Positions 2,105-61,331 of a stretch of DNA of 64,000 bases are shown here, piece after piece. A program made the translations under genes and the position numbers. The stretch spans positions 832,001-896,000 of the forward strand of contig OZ242374.1 of the NCBI GenBank assembly GCA_965209055.1, read 5' to 3'. This DNA is from Acidobacteriota bacterium (GTDB taxonomy: Bacteria > Acidobacteriota > UBA6911 > RPQK01 > JAJDTT01). Numbering within the stretch: position 1 is the stretch's first letter; every line of letters begins with the position of its first letter. The notes beneath the pieces were generated by a model. The model saw nothing but the letters and a program-made list of their open reading frames with translations, was not told the DNA's origin and did not search any database.

Positions 2105-3559
2105 ATGCCCCGTCCCAATCTTCTGGTGCTGATGACCGATCAGCAGCGAGCCGACACCGTGGGTCCCGCCTCTCCCTGCCGGACCCCCCACCTGGACGCC
2201 CTGGCTGCTCAGGGAACCCGGTTTCTCCGTGCCTACTCTTCCAACCCCATCTGCTCGCCCAGCCGGGCGAGCCTGATGACGGGGCTCCTGCCCCACAGCC
2301 ACGGGATGGTCGACTGCACCCATACGGTGGAGCCCTATCGCGCCGACCTGAAGCCGGGACTCCCCTTCTGGAGCCGGGAGCTTCGGGGCGCCGGGTATCG
2401 CACCGGCTACTACGGGAAATGGCACATCGAGCGCTCCAATCGGCTGGAGGATTTCGGATTCGATTCGTACGAGCTGATGGAGAGCTTCGAGGCGGCCGAT
2501 GTGGGATGCCAACGGGTTCCCGACGCCGGCTACCTGGCGCGCCGCCGGAGCCTGGGACTCCCCGAATCGGATCGCCGCTGGGAACGCAAGGGGATGGTTC
2601 GCCATCCCGGATACCGGGACCTGTTGCTGCACGGCGTCGTGGACGAGCCCGTGGAGGGAACCCGCGAGCACCACGTCTTCTCGCGCGGGATCGATTTTCT
2701 GAATGAACCGGCCCGCGGCGACCAACCGTGGTGCCTCTTCCTGAGCACCGCCGGTCCTCACGATCCCTACGTCGTGCCGCGGGAATACCGTCGCCGCTAC
2801 GACGCCCGTTCCCTGATGCCTCCCCCCAGTTTCCAGGACGATCTGGCCGGCCGTCCCGCCATCTACCGGCGGATGCGGAGCGTGTGGGACCAGATGCGGT
2901 GGTCCGATTTCGCCGAGGCCACCGCCTGCTACTACGCCTTCTGTTCCCTCGTCGACGACCAGATCGGGAGGATTCTGAGGGTCCTGGAGGAGACGGGCCA
3001 GTCGGAGAATACGCTGGTGCTGTTCCTGTCGGACCACGGTGACTACATGGGAGCCCACCGTCTGATGCTCAAGGGGGTCCCCGCCTTCGAGGAGGCTTAT
3101 CGCGTGCCCCTGATCCTGAAAGGTCCCGGGGTGAATCCGGGACAGGAGGTCCCCGAGATCGTCAGTCTGCTGGACGTGGCGCCGACCCTGACGGAGCTGA
3201 CGCTGGGAGAGGACTTCTCCTGCCACGGGCGGTCGCTGCGTCCGCTGTTGGAGGGGGACGGATCCGGCTGGGACTCGGAAGCCTACGCCGAAATGCAGGG
3301 CCAGAGAATGGCGTACACGCAACGGGTTCTCTGGAGAGACAACCACAAGTACGTCTTCAATGCCTTCGACGAAGACGAGGTCTACGACCTGGAACAGGAT
3401 CCCCACGAACTGCGCAACCTGGCCGGAAGCCGCGAGTCCCTGTGCCGGGAGATGGCGGCTCGGATGTGGGAAATCGCCCGAGCCACCGGCGACTACAACC
3501 TCTACGAGTCCCAGTACGGCTGCTTCCGCTGGGCGCCCGTGGGACCGGAGGCGCGCTAG
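2105..3559 (+). CDS. Sulfatase (formylglycine-dependent, choline-sulfatase-like)
   Basis: PNLLVLMTDQQR, CSPSRASLMTG (CxPxR), GKWH, SDHGD motifs. Confidence 0.92.
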   Translation: MPRPNLLVLMTDQQRADTVGPASPCRTPHLDALAAQGTRFLRAYSSNPICSPSRASLMTGLLPHSHGMVDCTHTVEPYRADLKPGLPFWSRELRGAGYRTGYYGKWHIERSNRLEDFGFDSYELMESFEAADVGCQRVPDAGYLARRRSLGLPESDRRWERKGMVRHPGYRDLLLHGVVDEPVEGTREHHVFSRGIDFLNEPARGDQPWCLFLSTAGPHDPYVVPREYRRRYDARSLMPPPSFQDDLAGRPAIYRRMRSVWDQMRWSDFAEATACYYAFCSLVDDQIGRILRVLEETGQSENTLVLFLSDHGDYMGAHRLMLKGVPAFEEAYRVPLILKGPGVNPGQEVPEIVSLLDVAPTLTELTLGEDFSCHGRSLRPLLEGDGSGWDSEAYAEMQGQRMAYTQRVLWRDNHKYVFNAFDEDEVYDLEQDPHELRNLAGSRESLCREMAARMWEIARATGDYNLYESQYGCFRWAPVGPEAR

Positions 3560-3564
3560 GAGGG

Positions 3565-3578
3565 GGGACTGTTAGTCC
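3565..3578. repeat. att core, left copy (GGGACTGTTAGTCC)
   Basis: Identical to 7094-7107. Contains the dyad GGACT-GTT-AGTCC. Confidence 0.85.
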
Positions 3579-3607
3579 GACGCTCTGTCCAACTGAGCTA
3601 CGGGATT
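3565..3607 (-). pseudogene. tRNA-like 5' half (acceptor 5' strand, D-arm, partial anticodon arm)
   Basis: Minus strand reads AATCCCG-TA-GCTC-AGTTGGACA-GAGC-G-TCGGA-CTAACAG-TCC. D-arm is canonical; no T-arm or 3' acceptor strand follows. Confidence 0.7.
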
Positions 3608-3627
3608 GATCCTTTCCTTTCAACAGG

Positions 3628-4734
3628 TTATCCCGATGCTCCTCTCAAATCGTTCCTCCTATTTCCTCCCCGTTGCCTGTTTGTTGCCGGTCTCATTTGT
3701 GAGTCTTCGGTAGCCTGTGCCTCCCGAATGCTGGCAAGCGCATGCGAACTGACGTACCCCGCGTAGCGCATCGTCGTGCTGATCGAGGAGTGGCCCATCA
3801 GCTTCTGCACCGTCCTCACGTCCACCCCCTGCATCAGCCAATGGCTGCACCGGAATCGTCTCAGGTCGTGAAATCCGACCTTCAACCCCACCCGCTCGGT
3901 GGCCCGGCGCAACGGCTTGTCCGGATTCACCCATCTCGTGCCGGTTCGGGTGTTGACAAAGACATATGGGGTGCTCAGGTAGCGAACCAGCCCGGTCAGG
4001 TATCCTGCGGCGTACTTCGACAGCGGGATCTCCCTCGTCTCGTCGTTCTTGGTGAATTCCACCCATAGCAGCCTCCGGGATAGATCCACCCGTTTCCAGG
4101 TGAGCGACAACGCTTCGCCTTTCCGAATCCCCGTCTCGCCGATCACGGCGATCATGGCTTGCAGGTAAGGGTTGTCCATCGCCTCGACCAGGTCGCGGAA
4201 CTGTTGAACCGTCAAGGGCCGGAAGACCTTCTTGGGTTCTTTGAGTTTGGGGAATCTCACCAGCGGGTGCGTGTCCACTTCCCCGCACTCCAGCGCGTAG
4301 GAAAACAGCTTGCTGATGGCGGCAATGTCCCGGTTCACCGTGGCCGGCTGCACTTGCTTCTTTCTCCTGGCGACGTAGCGGTACAGGTCCTTGCGTTGGA
4401 ACTCCTTCAGGGGAATGTTCCCCAGCATGGCGTTGAGGCTCTTGAACGAGAGCGCATAGCGGCGGCGGGAGCGCATGCGAGGTTTGCAATACTCCTCGAA
4501 GAAACGCTCGTAGAAGCTCCGGACCGTCCAGACGGTGCGGTTCCCGCCGGCGAGCTCCTCCTTGAGCTGCTTCCAGGTGCCGTCCAGGATGCTCGACTCG
4601 ATTCGTGTTTGAAGCGCCTGTGCGCTCCGGTAGTTGGGGGCGTACATTCGGAGCCGACCGGATCCGTTCGGCCAGTACTTGCTGACGACGTACCGTCGTC
4701 TCCCCCGGCGATCCTTCACCTTGTAGATGCCCAT
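3628..4734 (-). CDS. int: Tyrosine recombinase / phage integrase (lambda Int-like, with N-terminal arm-binding-like and core-binding domains), 368 aa
   Basis: TGIRKGE (catalytic R), TKN (K), FHDLRR (HxxR), LMGH...TTMRY (H, Y). ATG 4734 follows a strong SD (AGAAAGGAGG). Confidence 0.95.
   Translation of the reverse strand: MGIYKVKDRRGRRRYVVSKYWPNGSGRLRMYAPNYRSAQALQTRIESSILDGTWKQLKEELAGGNRTVWTVRSFYERFFEEYCKPRMRSRRRYALSFKSLNAMLGNIPLKEFQRKDLYRYVARRKKQVQPATVNRDIAAISKLFSYALECGEVDTHPLVRFPKLKEPKKVFRPLTVQQFRDLVEAMDNPYLQAMIAVIGETGIRKGEALSLTWKRVDLSRRLLWVEFTKNDETREIPLSKYAAGYLTGLVRYLSTPYVFVNTRTGTRWVNPDKPLRRATERVGLKVGFHDLRRFRCSHWLMQGVDVRTVQKLMGHSSISTTMRYAGYVSSHALASIREAQATEDSQMRPATNRQRGGNRRNDLRGASG
3674..3691 (+). 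repeat. Candidate integrase arm-type sites (tandem TGCC(T/G)GT), left end
   Basis: tgcctgtttgttgccggt matches 6971-6988 tgcctgtctgttgcctgt at 16/18. Each copy is about 100 bp inside an att core. Confidence 0.6.
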
Positions 4735-4800
4735 GCATCTCCTCCTTTCTGGATCCGGGTTCTTCGCCGTGGGGCGAATCGTACCACGGCTCCAGAGAAC

Positions 4801-4877
4801 GGACCGGTGGGACCTGTCCCCCCAGACCCCCCAGTGGCGCCAGAACCCGCGCCGGATCACCATTCCGGCGCTGAACC
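4801..4877 (-). repeat. 77-bp structured motif, copy 1 (inverted relative to 5804-5880), upstream of int
   Basis: Ungapped 60/77 identity to 5804-5880 by manual count. 8-bp stem GCGCCGGA/TCCGGCGC with loop ATGGTGA, then GGGGGGTCTGGGGGGACAGGTCC. Confidence 0.8.
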
Positions 4878-5247
4878 GGGCGCTTTTATTTGTCGCGTCC
4901 CATAAGAATGGGTCCCTCGCGCAGGATTCCCGCCGCGTCTCTCGCAGGCTTCCCGGTCGGAGCAAATCTGTCCCCGGCCGAGGTGTCGCTTGAAACCCCC
5001 TCAGGCGGGAATTCTCGTGAGATCGTGAAAAAACAAGCCCGCCATCTGGCCTGTGTTGGCCCGCCGCAGCCGGACGAAGGGTTAGGTATAGGCCCCGGAG
5101 CGTCGTCCAGAAGCCTCCGGCGCGGCGCCGGGAAACAGGCAATTCTCAGCACGGGCGCAGCCCGTTAGGTAGTCCATGAGATCCGGAGCTCGGGCGATCG
5201 GCAAGACGCGATCCTGCTTCCAGAACTCAGCCTGATGGTGAAGACGG

Positions 5248-5277
5248 CTGACGTCATCCGATCTTCTTGAGTAGAAT
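5248..5277 (+). promoter_or_regulatory. Putative sigma70-type promoter for the small membrane peptide
   Basis: CTGACG-N18-TAGAAT upstream of SD GGAGG (5311-5315). Confidence 0.35.
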
Positions 5278-5323
5278 CTGATGGAAGTGGGTCAATCGAA
5301 AGCAGGCCAGGGAGGCAAAGCAG

Positions 5324-5455
5324 ATGCGCTCAGACCACACCCCCCCCCCCACCATGCTCAGGATGGTCGTTGCCGTCGTCATCGGACTGATTGTGTTCGA
5401 GGTGGTGGCGGCGCTGTATCAGGTCGTCGCCGGGTTCTTTCTGGCGGCTTTCTGA
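5324..5455 (+). CDS. 43-aa hydrophobic membrane peptide with an internal C11 tract
   Basis: Below the ORF-track cutoff. MRSDHTPPPTMLRMVVAVVIGLIVFEVVAALYQVVAGFFLAAF; GGAGG lies 8 nt upstream of the ATG. Confidence 0.55.
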   Translation: MRSDHTPPPTMLRMVVAVVIGLIVFEVVAALYQVVAGFFLAAF

Positions 5456-5803
5456 CGTCTTGCCGGGTTTTCGGCCCCAAGAGCAATCCAAAATCACGGC
5501 GATGGTAGCCGGTCGGGCCAAGGGTTCCACCTCGATGGCCAGGCCGACATGGAAAGCGTCCTCGGTTCTGGCGATCCAGGGGAGAAAGTAAATTGCACCG
5601 GTGGGGCTGGGGGCTTGAGAGATCGGTGGCAACACTGAACTGGAGGCAAAACGACGCACCCTGTGGGAAATCTCTGATTTTCCACACGGTGGGGAGGTTC
5701 GTTGAGACGAGGCTCGATCCCTCTTTGGAGAGTTCTTTGGTGGGTATGTGTCTCTTCGCATCCGGGGGGTTCGGGGGGGCTGGCCCCACCGCTACGAGCG
5801 TCA

Positions 5804-5880
5804 GGTTCACGGTCGGCTTGGTGTGCCGAACGGGGTTCAGGCGCACCAGGGGGGTCTGGGGGGACAGGTCCACCCGGTCC
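5804..5880 (+). repeat. 77-bp structured motif, copy 2
   Basis: Stem CGGTCGGC/GCCGAACG (7 of 8 paired) with loop TTGGTGT, then the same G-rich block as copy 1. Confidence 0.8.
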
Positions 5881-5917
5881 TCGGTCTTCTTCCGGGCCTT
5901 CCCGCAGGGAGAATTGA

Positions 5918-6014
5918 GACGGGAGCGACCCCCCCAGGGGGTGTTGCGCAAATGTGAATTGCGCAACGCCCCCGCGCCCGCACCGGGCAGCAAAAAGGGG
6001 GGGTCGCTCCCGTC
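5918..6014 (+). other. Nested stem-loop (three-way junction); candidate structured RNA or ssDNA signal
   Basis: Perfect 18-bp outer stem 5918-5935/5997-6014. 15-bp inner stem 5937-5951/5959-5973 with one G-T pair on the + strand. Small GCCCG/CGGGC hairpin. Confidence 0.7.
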
Positions 6015-6240
6015 CACCTCCATTTTCCCCGTGCGGCCACCCGGTGGCCGGGAATGGGGCCGTAACTGACTGAAAGGAAAAAAGATCGGGGAGAGTGAAT
6101 TTGTGAGTCACCGGGACCGCTTTTTGTGAATCCACCCCCTTTGTCCCATTCACATCCCGGATCGGGCGCGAGACCCTCTTGACGCACGCCCGAAACGAGT
6201 CACCAATAACCTTTGCGGCGGCCGAGAGTGGTCATCTCGA

Positions 6241-6480
6241 TCACAACTGACACGGAGCGATCCTCCACCGCCGGTGCGTCGCCATCCAGGAGCGCAGACC
6301 CTCGGTGACCACCGGCTCCGGAGCGACACAGACGAGGGTGGCCCTGCCGTCCTCGACGGCAATCTGCAGTTTGAACGCCAAGTAACGCCGGGTCCTCCCC
6401 ACTGCGCCATAGGGCACTTGCCGGGGATGCTGATTCTCGGGAATGGCGTCCCGTCCGAAGGGGTCTACGGACTTGTTCAT
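6241..6480 (-). CDS. Hypothetical protein, 79 aa (element-borne)
   Basis: ATG start with GAGGGTG upstream. No motif recognised. Confidence 0.4.
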   Translation of the reverse strand: MNKSVDPFGRDAIPENQHPRQVPYGAVGRTRRYLAFKLQIAVEDGRATLVCVAPEPVVTEGLRSWMATHRRWRIAPCQL

Positions 6481-6625
6481 CCGCCGTCACCCTCGGAATG
6501 CTCTACGACATCGGATGGGAGCTACGTGAGCGTGGAGTGGACCCCCTCGACGTGCTACGGTGTCTCGAAGGTGCTCAGTAACGACCACTCAACTCAGTGG
6601 TGCAACCGAGTAAGGAGTAACCCTA

Positions 6626-6892
6626 ATGAACCCAGCCCGCGAAACAATTCCGCCCGAACGCCTTCAACAAATTGCGGCGTGGGACGGATTAGCTTCCCAA
6701 GTCGTTCTCGTGGACGTTCCGGGTCGGGGACTGGTTCCCAAACTGAGGTTGTGGTTTCAGTTCCGACGACTCGGACCACCGCCTCCGGGTAACGGGCCAA
6801 CCATTCACCAAGAAGCAGTTGTCGGTCTGGAATTTGCGCAGAGGATGGTGGACCACATATCGAGTGCAATTGCCGACGCGAAGCAGCGTTGA
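6626..6892 (+). CDS. Hypothetical protein, 88 aa (element-borne)
   Basis: AAGGAG SD 8 nt before the ATG. Globular-looking composition; no motif recognised. Confidence 0.6.
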   Translation: MNPARETIPPERLQQIAAWDGLASQVVLVDVPGRGLVPKLRLWFQFRRLGPPPPGNGPTIHQEAVVGLEFAQRMVDHISSAIADAKQR

Positions 6893-6970
6893 CGTTCACG
6901 GAGCCGCACTTGGGGCAGTTGATACGGAAGGGAGAAAAAGGGCGCGCCGGCTTTCAGGAGCCGATTCGGC

Positions 6971-6988
6971 TGCCTGTCTGTTGCCTGT
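6971..6988 (+). repeat. Candidate integrase arm-type sites, right end
   Basis: Direct-repeat partner of 3674-3691. Confidence 0.6.
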
Positions 6989-7093
6989 TCAGCATGTCAA
7001 ACATAGGGAGTCAACCACCTTACCGATTCGGCGAAGAACCCGGTAAATCACTGTAAACGTTAATGTTCGGTAGTCTTTGACTTTGGGACAGTT

Positions 7094-7107
7094 GGGACTG
7101 TTAGTCC
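7094..7107. repeat. att core, right copy (GGGACTGTTAGTCC)
   Basis: Identical to 3565-3578. Confidence 0.85.
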
Positions 7108-7113
7108 CCCTCT

Positions 7114-7265
7114 GCGGCGACTTTCCTGTCGCCCACTGGGACAGGCAACTATCTTGTCGCTTGGTCTTCTTGCCGGAAAGTGTAAAGGGGGGACTACCGT
7201 CCCCCCTCCCCCCCCTGTCGGCGGTTGGAAACCGCCGCTCCAAGTCGCCGCTCCAAGTCGTCGTT
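7114..7265. repeat. Cluster of REP-like palindromes (families A and B) between convergent host genes
   Basis: ggcgactttcctgtcgcc; aggggggactaccgtcccccct; cggcggttggaaaccgccgctcc. Confidence 0.7.
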
Positions 7266-7268
7266 CCC

Positions 7269-8015
7269 CTAGTACATGAACCACCCACCGTTGACGTCCA
7301 GGGTGGCTCCGGTGAAATACGAGGCTTCCTCCGAGGCCAGGAAGACGACGACGGAAGCGATCTCCTCCGGGTCGCCCAGCCGTCCCAGGGGAATCTGGTC
7401 GACGATCGCCGCCACCTGCTCCGACGGAATCCGCATCATGTCCGTATCGACAACTCCAGGCGCGATGGCATTCACGGTGACATCGGGAGCCAGTGTCCGG
7501 GCGTACGACTTGGTGATGGCGATGATCCCCGCCTTGGTGGCCGCATAGACCGACGAGGCGGCCACGCCTCCCGTCCGGGCGCCGACGGAGCTGATGTTCA
7601 CGATCCTTCCCGAGCCCTGCCGGACCATCACCGGCGACACCGCCTGCGACACGAAGAAGGTCCCCTTGAGGTTGATCCCCACGATCCGATCGAAGTCCGC
7701 CTCGGTCACCTCCTCCAGCGGGATTCGCGGGCAGATGGCCGCGTTGTTGACCAGGACGTCGATGCGCTCGTGCTCCGTCACGATCTTCTCGATGGCAGTC
7801 GAGATCTCCGATGGCCGGGAAATGTCAAGAGTGTAGGCGGCCGCCGACTTCCCTTCCCGGGTCAAACGATCCGCCAGTCGCCGGACTCCCTCGGTGTTGA
7901 TGTCGCAGAGCACGACCTTGGCGGACTCATTGGTGACAGCCCGGGCGATGGCCGTCCCGATCCCGCCCGCGGCTCCTGTGATCAATACGACCTTGCCGGA
8001 TAGCGTTCCCTTCAT
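7269..8015 (-). CDS. Short-chain dehydrogenase/reductase (FabG-like)
   Basis: TGAAGGIG, NNAA, YAATK (YxxxK), VNAIAPG motifs. Confidence 0.92.
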   Translation of the reverse strand: MKGTLSGKVVLITGAAGGIGTAIARAVTNESAKVVLCDINTEGVRRLADRLTREGKSAAAYTLDISRPSEISTAIEKIVTEHERIDVLVNNAAICPRIPLEEVTEADFDRIVGINLKGTFFVSQAVSPVMVRQGSGRIVNISSVGARTGGVAASSVYAATKAGIIAITKSYARTLAPDVTVNAIAPGVVDTDMMRIPSEQVAAIVDQIPLGRLGDPEEIASVVVFLASEEASYFTGATLDVNGGWFMY

Positions 8016-8037
8016 TCCTGTATTCCTCCGTCCCCAA

Positions 8038-9480
8038 TCAGACAAGCCGCCGGATCAGGTTGGACACCCGCTCGACGACGGTCTGTTCGGCGTCCGGGCG
8101 CAATGCCACCGGCATGGAATGGCTCTGCACCAGCAGGTCCGGTACGGCGTAGCGTTCGTGAACACTCCAGCCTCCTTGAGGATAGTCTTCGGCACGGGGC
8201 AGATAGGCGACGAGGCCGTTGGAGAACCCCAGGAACTGGGTGTGCTCGAAGGGCGATCGCGCCTTGACGTCCAGTCCGGTCTGAAAGAAGGCCTCGACGC
8301 TGGCGCTGGCCACGACGATGTCGTTGATCCGAATCGCCTGAATGAGCGTATCCAACGGCGGATTCCCCGCGTGCACGGCTTCGACCAGTTTTTCGGCCCA
8401 GTCGCTGAAGCGCATCGCCACGCTGATCTCCCAGTTCCTGGCGTCGCTGGTCCGGGCGTGGTCCAACTTCTGCCTCCACTCGTCACGGATGGCCTCCGCT
8501 TCCTCCAGCGGCGGCAGTTCCCCGAACTCCAACTGGATGATCTCGTCGACGGCGCCCAAATAGGTGCAGGTTTCGCCGTCGGCCGGCTCCCACGGCCAGA
8601 ACAGGATGTTGGGAATGACCCCCATGGGACGCCGCTCTTTCCCGCGACGGACGTTGGTGCGGATGTCCGCAGCCACTTTGACCACTTCGGCGCCCAGAAT
8701 CAGGCCGGTCCGGTTCTTGGTGTCCCGGCAATCCACCTCGTAACCGATCCCATGGACCGGATTGACGTTTCCGCCACAGGCCTGCAGAAAGACTGAAAGC
8801 CCGCCCAAAGTGTCTTCCACCAGATCGCGGGCCGGACCGGGAAAGTCGGAGGAGACCAGCGACGAGCGGGGGCCCATGGTCACGGTGTGGCAGCCGTAGC
8901 TGAAGCAGGTGGCGATGGGACGGCCCTCCAGATCGTCGATTCTGAGGACGCCGACAGCCGAATCGATGGGAACGCTGGGATCTTCTCCCAGGACGTCGCG
9001 GCCGTCGGGACCCGTCTCCCTCCTGTAGACGCCGATATGGGCTTTACCCCATCCCGCCCCGATCCGGGCCGGCTGCGAAGACTGGTCGGCCTCCACGCAC
9101 GTCTCCACCAGCCACTCGATGAGCCGATCCTGGTAGGCGCGTTGAAGCCTCATCTGCCCCGGCGAGTCGGGCAGGAAATCAGGCAGCGCCGGACCGCTGT
9201 GGGTATGGTTGAAATTGATCAGGACATGGGACGCCGGCGTCCCCACCGCCTCGCCGATGCGCCGCCGGATCTCGAGCGCGACAGGCAGAAAGATGACACA
9301 GATATCGATGCCGACGATAACCACCTTGCTGGCCTGATTGGAGAGCACAACGGCGGTCGCCGACAGATCCGATTCGACGGCCTGGAGCGGTTCGGCGAAC
9401 AGCCGGATCCCGGGCCGCTTCGTTCCCAGGGGAGGGTTGATGATTCTTCGGGCGGCGCCCGCACAGAGGACCTTCGACAT
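8038..9480 (-). CDS. Neutral/alkaline ceramidase-like amidohydrolase
   Basis: HTHSGP, YGCH, SSDFPG, LQACGGNVNP motifs. AAGGGAG SD. Confidence 0.75.
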   Translation of the reverse strand: MSKVLCAGAARRIINPPLGTKRPGIRLFAEPLQAVESDLSATAVVLSNQASKVVIVGIDICVIFLPVALEIRRRIGEAVGTPASHVLINFNHTHSGPALPDFLPDSPGQMRLQRAYQDRLIEWLVETCVEADQSSQPARIGAGWGKAHIGVYRRETGPDGRDVLGEDPSVPIDSAVGVLRIDDLEGRPIATCFSYGCHTVTMGPRSSLVSSDFPGPARDLVEDTLGGLSVFLQACGGNVNPVHGIGYEVDCRDTKNRTGLILGAEVVKVAADIRTNVRRGKERRPMGVIPNILFWPWEPADGETCTYLGAVDEIIQLEFGELPPLEEAEAIRDEWRQKLDHARTSDARNWEISVAMRFSDWAEKLVEAVHAGNPPLDTLIQAIRINDIVVASASVEAFFQTGLDVKARSPFEHTQFLGFSNGLVAYLPRAEDYPQGGWSVHERYAVPDLLVQSHSMPVALRPDAEQTVVERVSNLIRRLV

Positions 9481-19527: not shown

Positions 19528-19547
19528 GGGGGACCTTCCTGTCCCCC
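19528..19547. repeat. REP-like G-run hairpin (family B, GGGGGAC-N4-6-GTCCCCC)
   Basis: gggggaccttcctgtccccc. Confidence 0.6.
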
Positions 19548-61195: not shown

Positions 61196-61331
61196 AAGGG
61201 GGGACTGTCGTCCCCCCTTGAACACCTCTGTTTGGCGACAGGATAACCGCCGCTCCCGGCGGCAGGAAAGCCGCCGGTCCTGGTCGGCGGCAAGAAAGCC
61301 GCCGCTCCCGGCGACAGGAATGTCGCCGCTC
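61196..61331. repeat. REP-like palindrome cluster (families B and A) between convergent genes
   Basis: aaggggggactgtcgtcccccctt plus four GGCG(G/A)CA(G/A)GA..GCCG units. Confidence 0.75.

Follow-up and report, generated by a model that had tools for sequence, protein, structure and literature searches.

Some insertion sequences, including those of the IS110 type, target REP/BIME palindromes, and their enzymes belong to the DDE, DEDD or HUH types. Integron cassettes have no integrase of their own and are stacked at one platform. Paired arm-type sites, an arm-binding domain and a tRNA target form the make-up of double-strand, lambda-type systems. The described systems closest to the locus analyzed here include two groups of tRNA-targeting integrases, which are treated in a review of archaeal tyrosine recombinases (PMC8371274). 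According to the sections of this review used here, crossover in the anticodon-loop class (Williams 2002) takes place within a 7-nt segment flanked by the dyad of the anticodon stem, and the integrase gene adjoins attP. The same sections state that bacterial tRNA genes restored after integration use the original promoter, with very few exceptions. The pTN3-like integrases of Thermococcales (Cossu et al. 2017) have the 5′ half of a tRNA gene as attB, which is described there as unique in archaea; expression of the restored tRNA is attributed to the integrase promoter, and use of a 5′ half is seldom met in bacteria. For palindromic targets, REP/RAYT biology served as the comparison (PMC3333891).

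The window (the whole stretch of 64,000 nt that was analyzed) contains a 3.5-kb element at positions 3565–7107, which is bounded by a 14-nt direct repeat, GGGACTGTTAGTCC, in exact copies at 3565–3578 and 7094–7107. Three matches of the repeat with at most two mismatches were found against 1.00 expected, and 7 of 100 shuffled sequences also reached three, so the count alone is not significant. Both exact copies nevertheless bound a unit that recurs throughout the genome. The features of the element and its junctions are as follows:

3557–3564, plus strand: left host half of the split hairpin, the sulfatase stop codon TAG (3557–3559) followed by the start of a G-run.
3565–3578, unstranded: attL repeat GGGACTGTTAGTCC, with the inferred 7-nt overlap CTGTTAG at 3569–3575.
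3566–3607, minus strand: tRNA-Arg(TCT)-derived 5′ half and anticodon arm, in the P′ arm of the attachment site; not a tRNA gene.
3608–3627, minus strand: 20-nt spacer from the integrase stop codon to the tRNA-like half, with the conserved motif GTTGAAA(G)GAAAGGAT.
3628–4734, minus strand: tyrosine integrase gene, 368 aa, with ATG at 4732–4734 and stop codon at 3628–3630.
3672–3689, minus strand: candidate arm-type sites of the P′ side, AGGCAAC (3672–3678) and CGGCAAC (3683–3689), spaced 11 nt apart within the 3′ part of the integrase gene.
5896–6226, plus strand: conserved non-coding backbone module, in which 5918–6014 is a long nested hairpin.
6924–7093, unstranded: right end, or P arm, which is conserved; its candidate arm-type sites are 6969–6975 and 6980–6986 on the minus strand.
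7094–7107, unstranded: attR repeat GGGACTGTTAGTCC, with the inferred overlap at 7098–7104.
7108–7112, plus strand: right host half of the split hairpin (C-run); the right-hand sequence resembles the SDR-side hairpin array of relatives.

The left repeat directly follows the stop codon of a sulfatase ORF (2105–3559; PF00884, 164 bits). Beyond the right C-run lie a hairpin array and then the end of a short-chain dehydrogenase (SDR) gene (7269–8045, minus strand). The copy in the window is devoid of recognizable cargo, and an Rfam search over 4700–7300 gave no match at E up to 1. The integrase belongs to the PF00589 family (98.9 bits against a cut-off of 27.1, covering profile positions 3–166 of 172), and the candidate catalytic stretches GIRKGE, HDLRRFR and GHSSISTTMRY were recognized by eye in its translation. 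The N-terminal matches are weak, namely, Int_N (PF24624, 27.3 bits) and a SAM-like domain (PF02899, 23.1 bits).

Analysis of the element against its own 6.08-Mb genome using BLAST showed 29 integrase-end and 31 right-end matches. According to position and strand, these ends pair into 25 elements of 2.7–25 kb, and one more element spans contig ends, which gives 26 complete copies; left over were a broken copy, a degenerate remnant and a few unpaired ends. The 26 full-length integrase frames show 88–100% amino acid identity to that of the window. The genome, which looks like a metagenome assembly, has an estimated contamination of 7.4%. Integrase matches (not copy numbers) amounted to 28 in this genome, i.e., the 26 full-length genes and one broken gene in two pieces, to 11 in the relative G004, and to 0–6 in each of the 39 remaining relatives included. 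What the minimal 2.7-kb copies have in common with the copy in the window is the integrase, the stretch 4799–4922, the non-coding block at about 5645–6460 and the right end 6924–7107; an excisionase or replication gene was looked for in these minimal copies, and none was found.

The motif (A/C)GGCA(A/G)C was noted 49 times in the P′ arms of 25 elements, at −111 and −100 from the core, and 45 times in 25 P arms, at +107 and +118, with 0.09 expected per arm in both cases. The paired candidate arm-type sites on both arms, together with the Int_N domain, whose score is a marginal pass of the cut-off of 27 bits, place the element among heterobivalent (lambda-type) systems. The motif in the spacer between the integrase and the tRNA-like half was read from an alignment of 27 arms and four tRNA-linked relatives. 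In relatives with a tRNA 3′ half, a TTGA(A/T)(A/T)(A/T) motif also precedes the tRNA end.

The first-pass annotation of this DNA had read the minus strand of the left element end as the 5′ half of a tRNA with the att core on the anticodon arm, and the analysis agrees with this. When the stretch was cut at the core, the Rfam tRNA model matched 3566–3607 (minus strand) over model positions 1–40 of 71 as a 3′-truncated hit (21.2 bits, E 0.0096). This score is below the gathering score of 29 bits, as is expected for half a tRNA. The covariance-model scan proposed as a check of 3565–3607 gave this match for the cut stretch and no match with the same model for the uncut one. ARAGORN called no tRNA at 3500–3700, and the stretch does not form the complete cloverleaf, with T-arm and acceptor 3′ strand, of a tRNA gene. 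A tRNA with a matching D-arm, which it had been proposed to look for, is present in this genome: the tRNA-Arg(TCT) gene at complement 307704–307778, which is unoccupied. Identity to this tRNA is 28/31 over tRNA positions 4–34 and 32/42 over positions 1–42, and the anticodon arm coincides with the core, GGA-CTAACAG-TCC. The additional likening of the plus-strand core to a tRNA-Asn arm was not borne out: the tRNA-Asn arm of this genome is CCGGCTGTTAACCGG, its stems differ, the homologous reading is that of the minus strand, and the ancestor is tRNA-Arg. The element carries the 5′ portion of the tRNA (positions 1–42) and not the 3′ portion that characterizes anticodon-loop integrases.

In every copy in the genome, the tRNA-like half is retained between the integrase and the core, and insertions or deletions are almost absent from the alignment of the arms. 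The likeness ends at tRNA position 42, i.e., at the core edge; positions 43 and 44 match in 0 and 1 of 27 arms, respectively. The acceptor positions 1, 2 and 3 are kept in 3, 9 and 12 of the 27 arms. The best-kept parts, the D-loop with the 3′ D-stem (GGACAGAG) and the anticodon-stem GGA/TCC, are found in 25–27 of 27, with tRNA positions 30–32 kept in all 27, and attP reads GGA-N7-TCC in every class of copies. Of 108 D-stem cells, 95 are paired and 13 are breaks, for which no more than two compensations are conceivable. In a search of three copies (those of the window, L054 and L055), Rfam gave a truncated tRNA match only for the class-A copy of the window; the class-C and class-D arms had no tRNA match at E up to 10. 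Since the D-stem breaks are uncompensated, a role as RNA is unsupported and the tRNA signal is fading. The tRNA half would thus persist as a fixed-length spacer, perhaps with a binding site, between the candidate arm-type sites and the core, and not as RNA.

The nearest outgroup integrases (82–84% and 71% identical) are located beside intact tRNA-Arg genes; one of them, on a 1.9-kb contig (84% identical integrase), runs into an intact tRNA-Arg(TCT). Twenty loci were fetched from relatives to examine the tRNA context. In four of these, with integrases 71–82% identical, an intact tRNA-Arg gene (TCT or TCG) is next to the integrase on the same strand, and its 5′ end faces the integrase. In 13 loci with more distant integrases (39–52% identical), a tRNA-Arg or tRNA-Leu gene lies on the other strand with its 3′ end facing the integrase, which is the textbook layout, and in three loci nothing more than a 3′ half including the anticodon arm is present. 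A search for the narrow integrase-to-tRNA junction pattern gave 3 of 401 genomes sampled from the phylum, and all three were already among those described here.

The most informative relative is G003, a genome of the same genus, where an island of approximately 47 kb with the same ends is integrated inside tRNA-Arg(TCT), with the crossover in the anticodon loop. At one junction, the native upstream flank matches up to tRNA position 42 and is followed by DNA homologous to window 6940–7093. At the other junction, which lies some 47 kb off, an intact tRNA and the syntenic downstream flank come after the integrase. The same locus is unbroken in G002, G005 and G007. The two junctions together indicate that the element provides the tRNA's 5′ half and that the one native to the host has been moved to the far end. 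The displaced fragment had been sought in the first 20 kb, where just a 10-nt chance match was found; the true far end is 47 kb away. Anticodon-loop targeting of tRNA genes by sister elements was found in G003, G010 and G035. In G035, identical integrases are located beside tRNA-Arg(TCT) and tRNA-Arg(TCG), with a difference of 1 nt between the two loops. One locus of the latter genome (G035:C1:5131142-5133448; L022, L025) contains one tRNA-Arg(TCG) between a 3′-half integrase (47%) on its 3′ side and a 5′-half integrase (71%) on its 5′ side; both halves of this tRNA may be element-supplied.

The target sites in the genome under study are different. The empty site of the window, reconstructed from the left flank, the repeat and the right flank, is GAGGGGGGAC-TGTTA-GTCCCCCTC, a hairpin with a perfect 7-bp stem including the closing pair. 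It had been taken for a G-run hairpin of the same kind as those at 7186–7207, 19528–19547 and 61196–61219, and not for a tRNA gene; the reconstruction and the folds of these like-built hairpins (DNA-fold z of −4.0, −1.3 and −4.6, respectively) confirm this. All 25 reconstructed empty sites in the genome, i.e., those of all paired copies, are G-run hairpins. Perfect stems of 4–8 bp in register with the overlap are present in 20 of them, and the five class-D sites have 8-bp stems (GTGGGGGT/ACCCCCAC) that are offset from it by one base. ARAGORN called 68 tRNAs, and none of these contains any of the 26 complete copies; among 17 loci from relatives, 14 run on into G/C-run hairpin sequence after the overlap.

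The hairpins are REP-like in their high copy number: GGGGAC-N3-8-GTCCCC occurs at 124 sites, whereas the counts of both hexamers would predict about 10. Class-C hairpins have some 30 nt of flanking sequence in common and occur as tandem arrays, for example, at genome positions 3248905–3249305 and 4101368–4101668, with periods of about 80 nt and 43 nt. Several ARAGORN calls of odd length in hairpin arrays, such as complement 4203100–4203187, look false. Two weak matches to Y1-transposase (PF01797, cut-off 23 bits), which scored 30.8 and 23.6 bits, were detected at genome positions 1142970–1143203 and 3750831–3751106; one of the two is about 600 nt from an element end.

These data point to the following explanation. 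Judging from sequence comparison, the attachment site of this element family descends from tRNA-Arg(TCT), and the lineage was very probably retargeted to the G-run, REP-like hairpins. The integrase would bind a short G-rich dyad common to the hairpins and the anticodon stem, and strand exchange would proceed as lambda-type recombination across a 7-bp overlap that corresponds to the 5-nt loop of the hairpin and its closing pair. The overlap alone would set the address, so that point changes in the attP overlap could have redirected the element, first away from the tRNA towards hairpin loops and later between loop types. The tRNA half would be retained as a spacer of fixed length or a binding region. 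Excision as a circle and re-integration at unoccupied hairpins may have raised the copy number, and the larger copies would ferry defence genes.

Another possibility is that the integrase recombines folded single-stranded hairpins, like integron integrases with attC, and not double-stranded sites. All targets are indeed strong hairpins, and the copy number has gone up without a visible replication gene. However, the attP core pairs over only 3–5 bp, the candidate arm-type sites are paired on both arms and accompanied by an N-terminal domain of the arm-binding type, and the sister element uses an ordinary tRNA gene, all of which makes the single-stranded mechanism unlikely. The direct repeats differ in length, which is 14–15 nt in classes A and B, 10–11 nt in class C and in one class-D copy, and 7 nt in the other four class-D copies. 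This range (7–15 nt) tracks the identity common to the attP and attB stems; where these differ, as in class D, the repeat shrinks to the 7 nt alone. Such a pattern is predicted for a 7-bp overlap flanked by protein-binding half-sites.

The first-pass annotation had left it open whether the tRNA-targeting integrase had switched or merely spilled over to REP-like palindromes. Spill-over would mean that a tRNA gene is still the primary site and that the hairpins are secondary sites, used when the primary one is lacking. It would fit the use of tRNA-Arg(TCT) by close relatives with 82–84% identical integrases and the attP stems GGA/TCC, unchanged in all 27 arms. Against this, the tRNA overlap CTTCTAA is kept in none of the 27 arms of this genome, and its tRNA-Arg(TCT) gene is present yet unoccupied. 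Moreover, the N7 of each attP, located by alignment, is exactly the loop region of the hairpin that it occupies.

The integrase tree bears on the same question. It was constructed for 57 integrases by a quick method without bootstraps, with the root assumed by taking the tRNA-Leu types as the outgroup. The hairpin-linked integrases formed one clade of 37 sequences (26 from this genome and 11 from relatives; SH-aLRT 95), which was joined first by the G003 integrase (L019; 98) and then by the other three 5′-half types (L020–L022; 100). The 3′-half tRNA-Arg types were placed beside the combined hairpin and 5′-half group. Since the hairpin users are one clade inside the tRNA users, a switch fits better, and the move of the integrase to palindromes, as such, stands; spill-over appears quite improbable.

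The site-specific retargeting also has to be weighed against a transposon-like origin of the hairpins, in which the hairpin halves are terminal inverted repeats of the element, the loop is a target duplication, and no pre-existing hairpin was targeted. The left flank (T)AGGAGGG is present in 7/7 class-A copies, and CCCCTCC follows most right ends, as such a structure would imply; the same left flank was also noted at 12 unoccupied sites counted by eye. However, the same hairpins with their flanks are found uninterrupted far from the elements. For the 7-mer CTGTTAG/CTAACAG of classes A and B, which occurs 97 times in the genome, nine uninterrupted hairpins have stems of at least 6 bp (the 12 sites counted by eye have laxer stems), and all 15 paired elements of these classes are in G-run hairpins, with no insertion at a non-hairpin occurrence of the 7-mer. 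For the other loops, uninterrupted hairpins number 133 for TTGGAAA, 21 for TTAGAAA (many of both with shared flanks and in arrays) and 2 for a third type, against 5, 1 and 4 occupied ones. Classes A and B, which are interleaved on the integrase tree, occupy the same asymmetric site in opposite orientations, with attP overlaps that are reverse complements. In addition, the repeat length varies exactly with the identity between the attP and attB stems, and an uninterrupted hairpin after a stop codon is present at the orthologous site in G004, with one loop base unlike that of the window's target. We therefore regard a transposon-like origin as very improbable.

That the tRNA likeness arose by chance or convergence, as a protein-binding sequence resembling a D-arm, can practically be dismissed: GGACAGAG could be a binding site and the covariance-model matches fail in two diverged copies, but the truncated match and the 28/31 identity to the genome's own tRNA-Arg(TCT), the end of the likeness exactly at the core edge, and the homologous arm of relatives, which forms the 5′ half of a tRNA gene that is intact and syntenic, all speak against it, and the G003 junctions already contradict it.

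The surroundings of the element in the window were compared with those in relatives. The sulfatase gene is not beside the SDR gene in G001, G002, G004, G005 and G007, so only the right-hand side of the empty site is comparable. In four relatives, the SDR gene is accompanied by differing hairpin sets that start at the TAG stop codon of the neighbouring gene. In the examples covered, namely, those of the window and the SDR-side arrays of the four relatives, the hairpins are intergenic and often start at a TAG stop. Opposite the SDR gene of the four relatives lies a gene that ends in ..VVEKYAF, after which come TAG and hairpins. In the genome under study, the ..VVEKYAF gene end adjoins the right end of another element copy at about position 6074466, approximately 840 kb away across contig ends. 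At 7108–7268, the changed neighbourhood has the appearance of a rearrangement associated with an element.

Contigs of four public runs were searched for excision (3564 joined to 7108) or a circle joint, and no clean one was found; the contigs break in the repeat. The element-spanning joints in these runs have 22–23 letters on the shorter side and extra letters in between, as repeats typically give. The left junction (2900–3610) is crossed by one contig of run X19 with 0 differences. The depth across the element is many-fold over that of the flanks, which does not equate to copy number and is not used as evidence. Contigs 95–99% similar to the flanks (window 2900–7800) occur in runs labelled as sponge metagenome (X1, X3), and four runs of one study contain 0.77–0.78 of the sampled words and could be the source.

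Six larger copies were analyzed for cargo: 69 frames were predicted and 54 scanned, with integrases and short overlapping frames left out. The domains found were AbiTii, Abi_alpha, FRG, an MmeI-type enzyme and a type I restriction-modification set (HsdS, HsdM, HsdR), as well as GmrSD, which was found twice, DDE transposases, and a methylase together with an Mrr-like nuclease. For one 6-kb copy, none of its four frames matched a domain. Five larger copies are located as follows:

L052, genome 2095900–2106550: larger copy.
L053, genome 5198350–5207620: larger copy.
L054, genome 4721800–4732500: larger copy.
L055, genome 2810300–2820850: larger copy.
L056, genome 3141000–3160999: larger copy.

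The cargo at these loci is mostly anti-phage defence, namely, AbiTii, Abi_alpha, the type I restriction-modification set, the MmeI-type enzyme and GmrSD, and DDE transposases are nested in two of them. The genome contains six tRNA-Leu(TAA) genes, one of which is within the element at 2095941–2106491. Two copies are identical over 2753/2753 nt, and two more are 99.96% identical, at loci with different flanks; on sequence grounds, this suggests recent movement of the copies.

The module at 5896–6226 has 66 BLAST matches in the genome, 33 inside elements and 33 outside, which are often clustered. Its central hairpin (5918–6014) folds as DNA at −51.7 kcal/mol with a z of −12, and no Rfam match to the module was found. 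Its interpretation as a gene was rejected, as codon periodicity is absent (0.111/0.120/0.131) and no clean ORF is present. ARAGORN miscalls copies of the module as an 85-nt tRNA-Val, e.g., at genome 5203736–5203820. The module could be an origin or transfer site.

The number of overlaps in use is considerable: three to four hairpin overlaps in this genome, one of them used both ways, and eight more noted by eye in relatives. For the family-level group, eleven hairpin overlaps and two tRNA overlaps were counted. This number and the identical integrases of G035 at two tRNA loops argue for an address driven by the overlap. A broader reading may be advanced tentatively, although in our estimate it is somewhat more apt to be wrong than right. 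The family would be an overlap-addressed integrase platform, in which near-identical integrases recognize a generic G-rich dyad and the 7-bp overlap is the sole address; one or a few base changes or a flip would then move the element between a tRNA gene and REP loops, with scattered, integron-like planting of defence cassettes at REP safe harbours. Should the overlap be the only determinant of the address, the family would be a natural example of what integrase engineers aim for and a source of ready-made cognate attP/attB pairs.

The retargeting from tRNA-Arg(TCT) to hairpins would show, in a single integrase lineage, site specificity evolving from a single-copy tRNA gene to an abundant repeat, with the steps visible in living relatives, namely, from the 3′-half tRNA type through the 5′-half tRNA type to the hairpin type. 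The tRNA half in the attachment site would be a molecular fossil that dates and directs the switch. A one-site integrase would thereby have become a many-site one, with 26 copies here against 0–11 integrase matches (which are not copy numbers) in the 40 relatives searched, and this would open the way to element-driven rearrangement and to the spread of defence genes around the chromosome. In addition, the family provides a bacterial instance of a rare arrangement, namely, a tRNA gene whose promoter-side half comes from a mobile element. A full-text literature search gave no account of a tyrosine integrase retargeted from tRNA to REP-like palindromes with multi-copy spread, which does not prove absence from print.

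Comparison with the known systems shows both likeness and difference. The distant relatives found here (39–52% identical) match the anticodon-loop class exactly, as 3′ ends of tRNA-Arg or tRNA-Leu face the integrase, whereas attP of the present family contains the 5′ half instead of the 3′ half, and the window's element is off the tRNA altogether and present in 26 copies. The layout of the G003 island is the same as that of the pTN3-like integrases. The 5′-half layout is thus rare but already known from the review of archaeal tyrosine recombinases, in its sections used here (PMC8371274). The likening to the pTN3-like integrases is by layout; these are archaeal, and those sections do not describe their retargeting to intergenic palindromes. 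As in REP-targeting insertion sequences, abundant intergenic palindromes serve as plentiful and probably low-cost landing sites, but the element here has a lambda-type tyrosine integrase, arms, a 7-bp overlap and cargo of up to about 20 kb. Integrons likewise combine a tyrosine recombinase, hairpin-shaped sites and small cassettes with adaptive genes, whereas here every unit comes with an integrase and arms of its own, and the units lie scattered.
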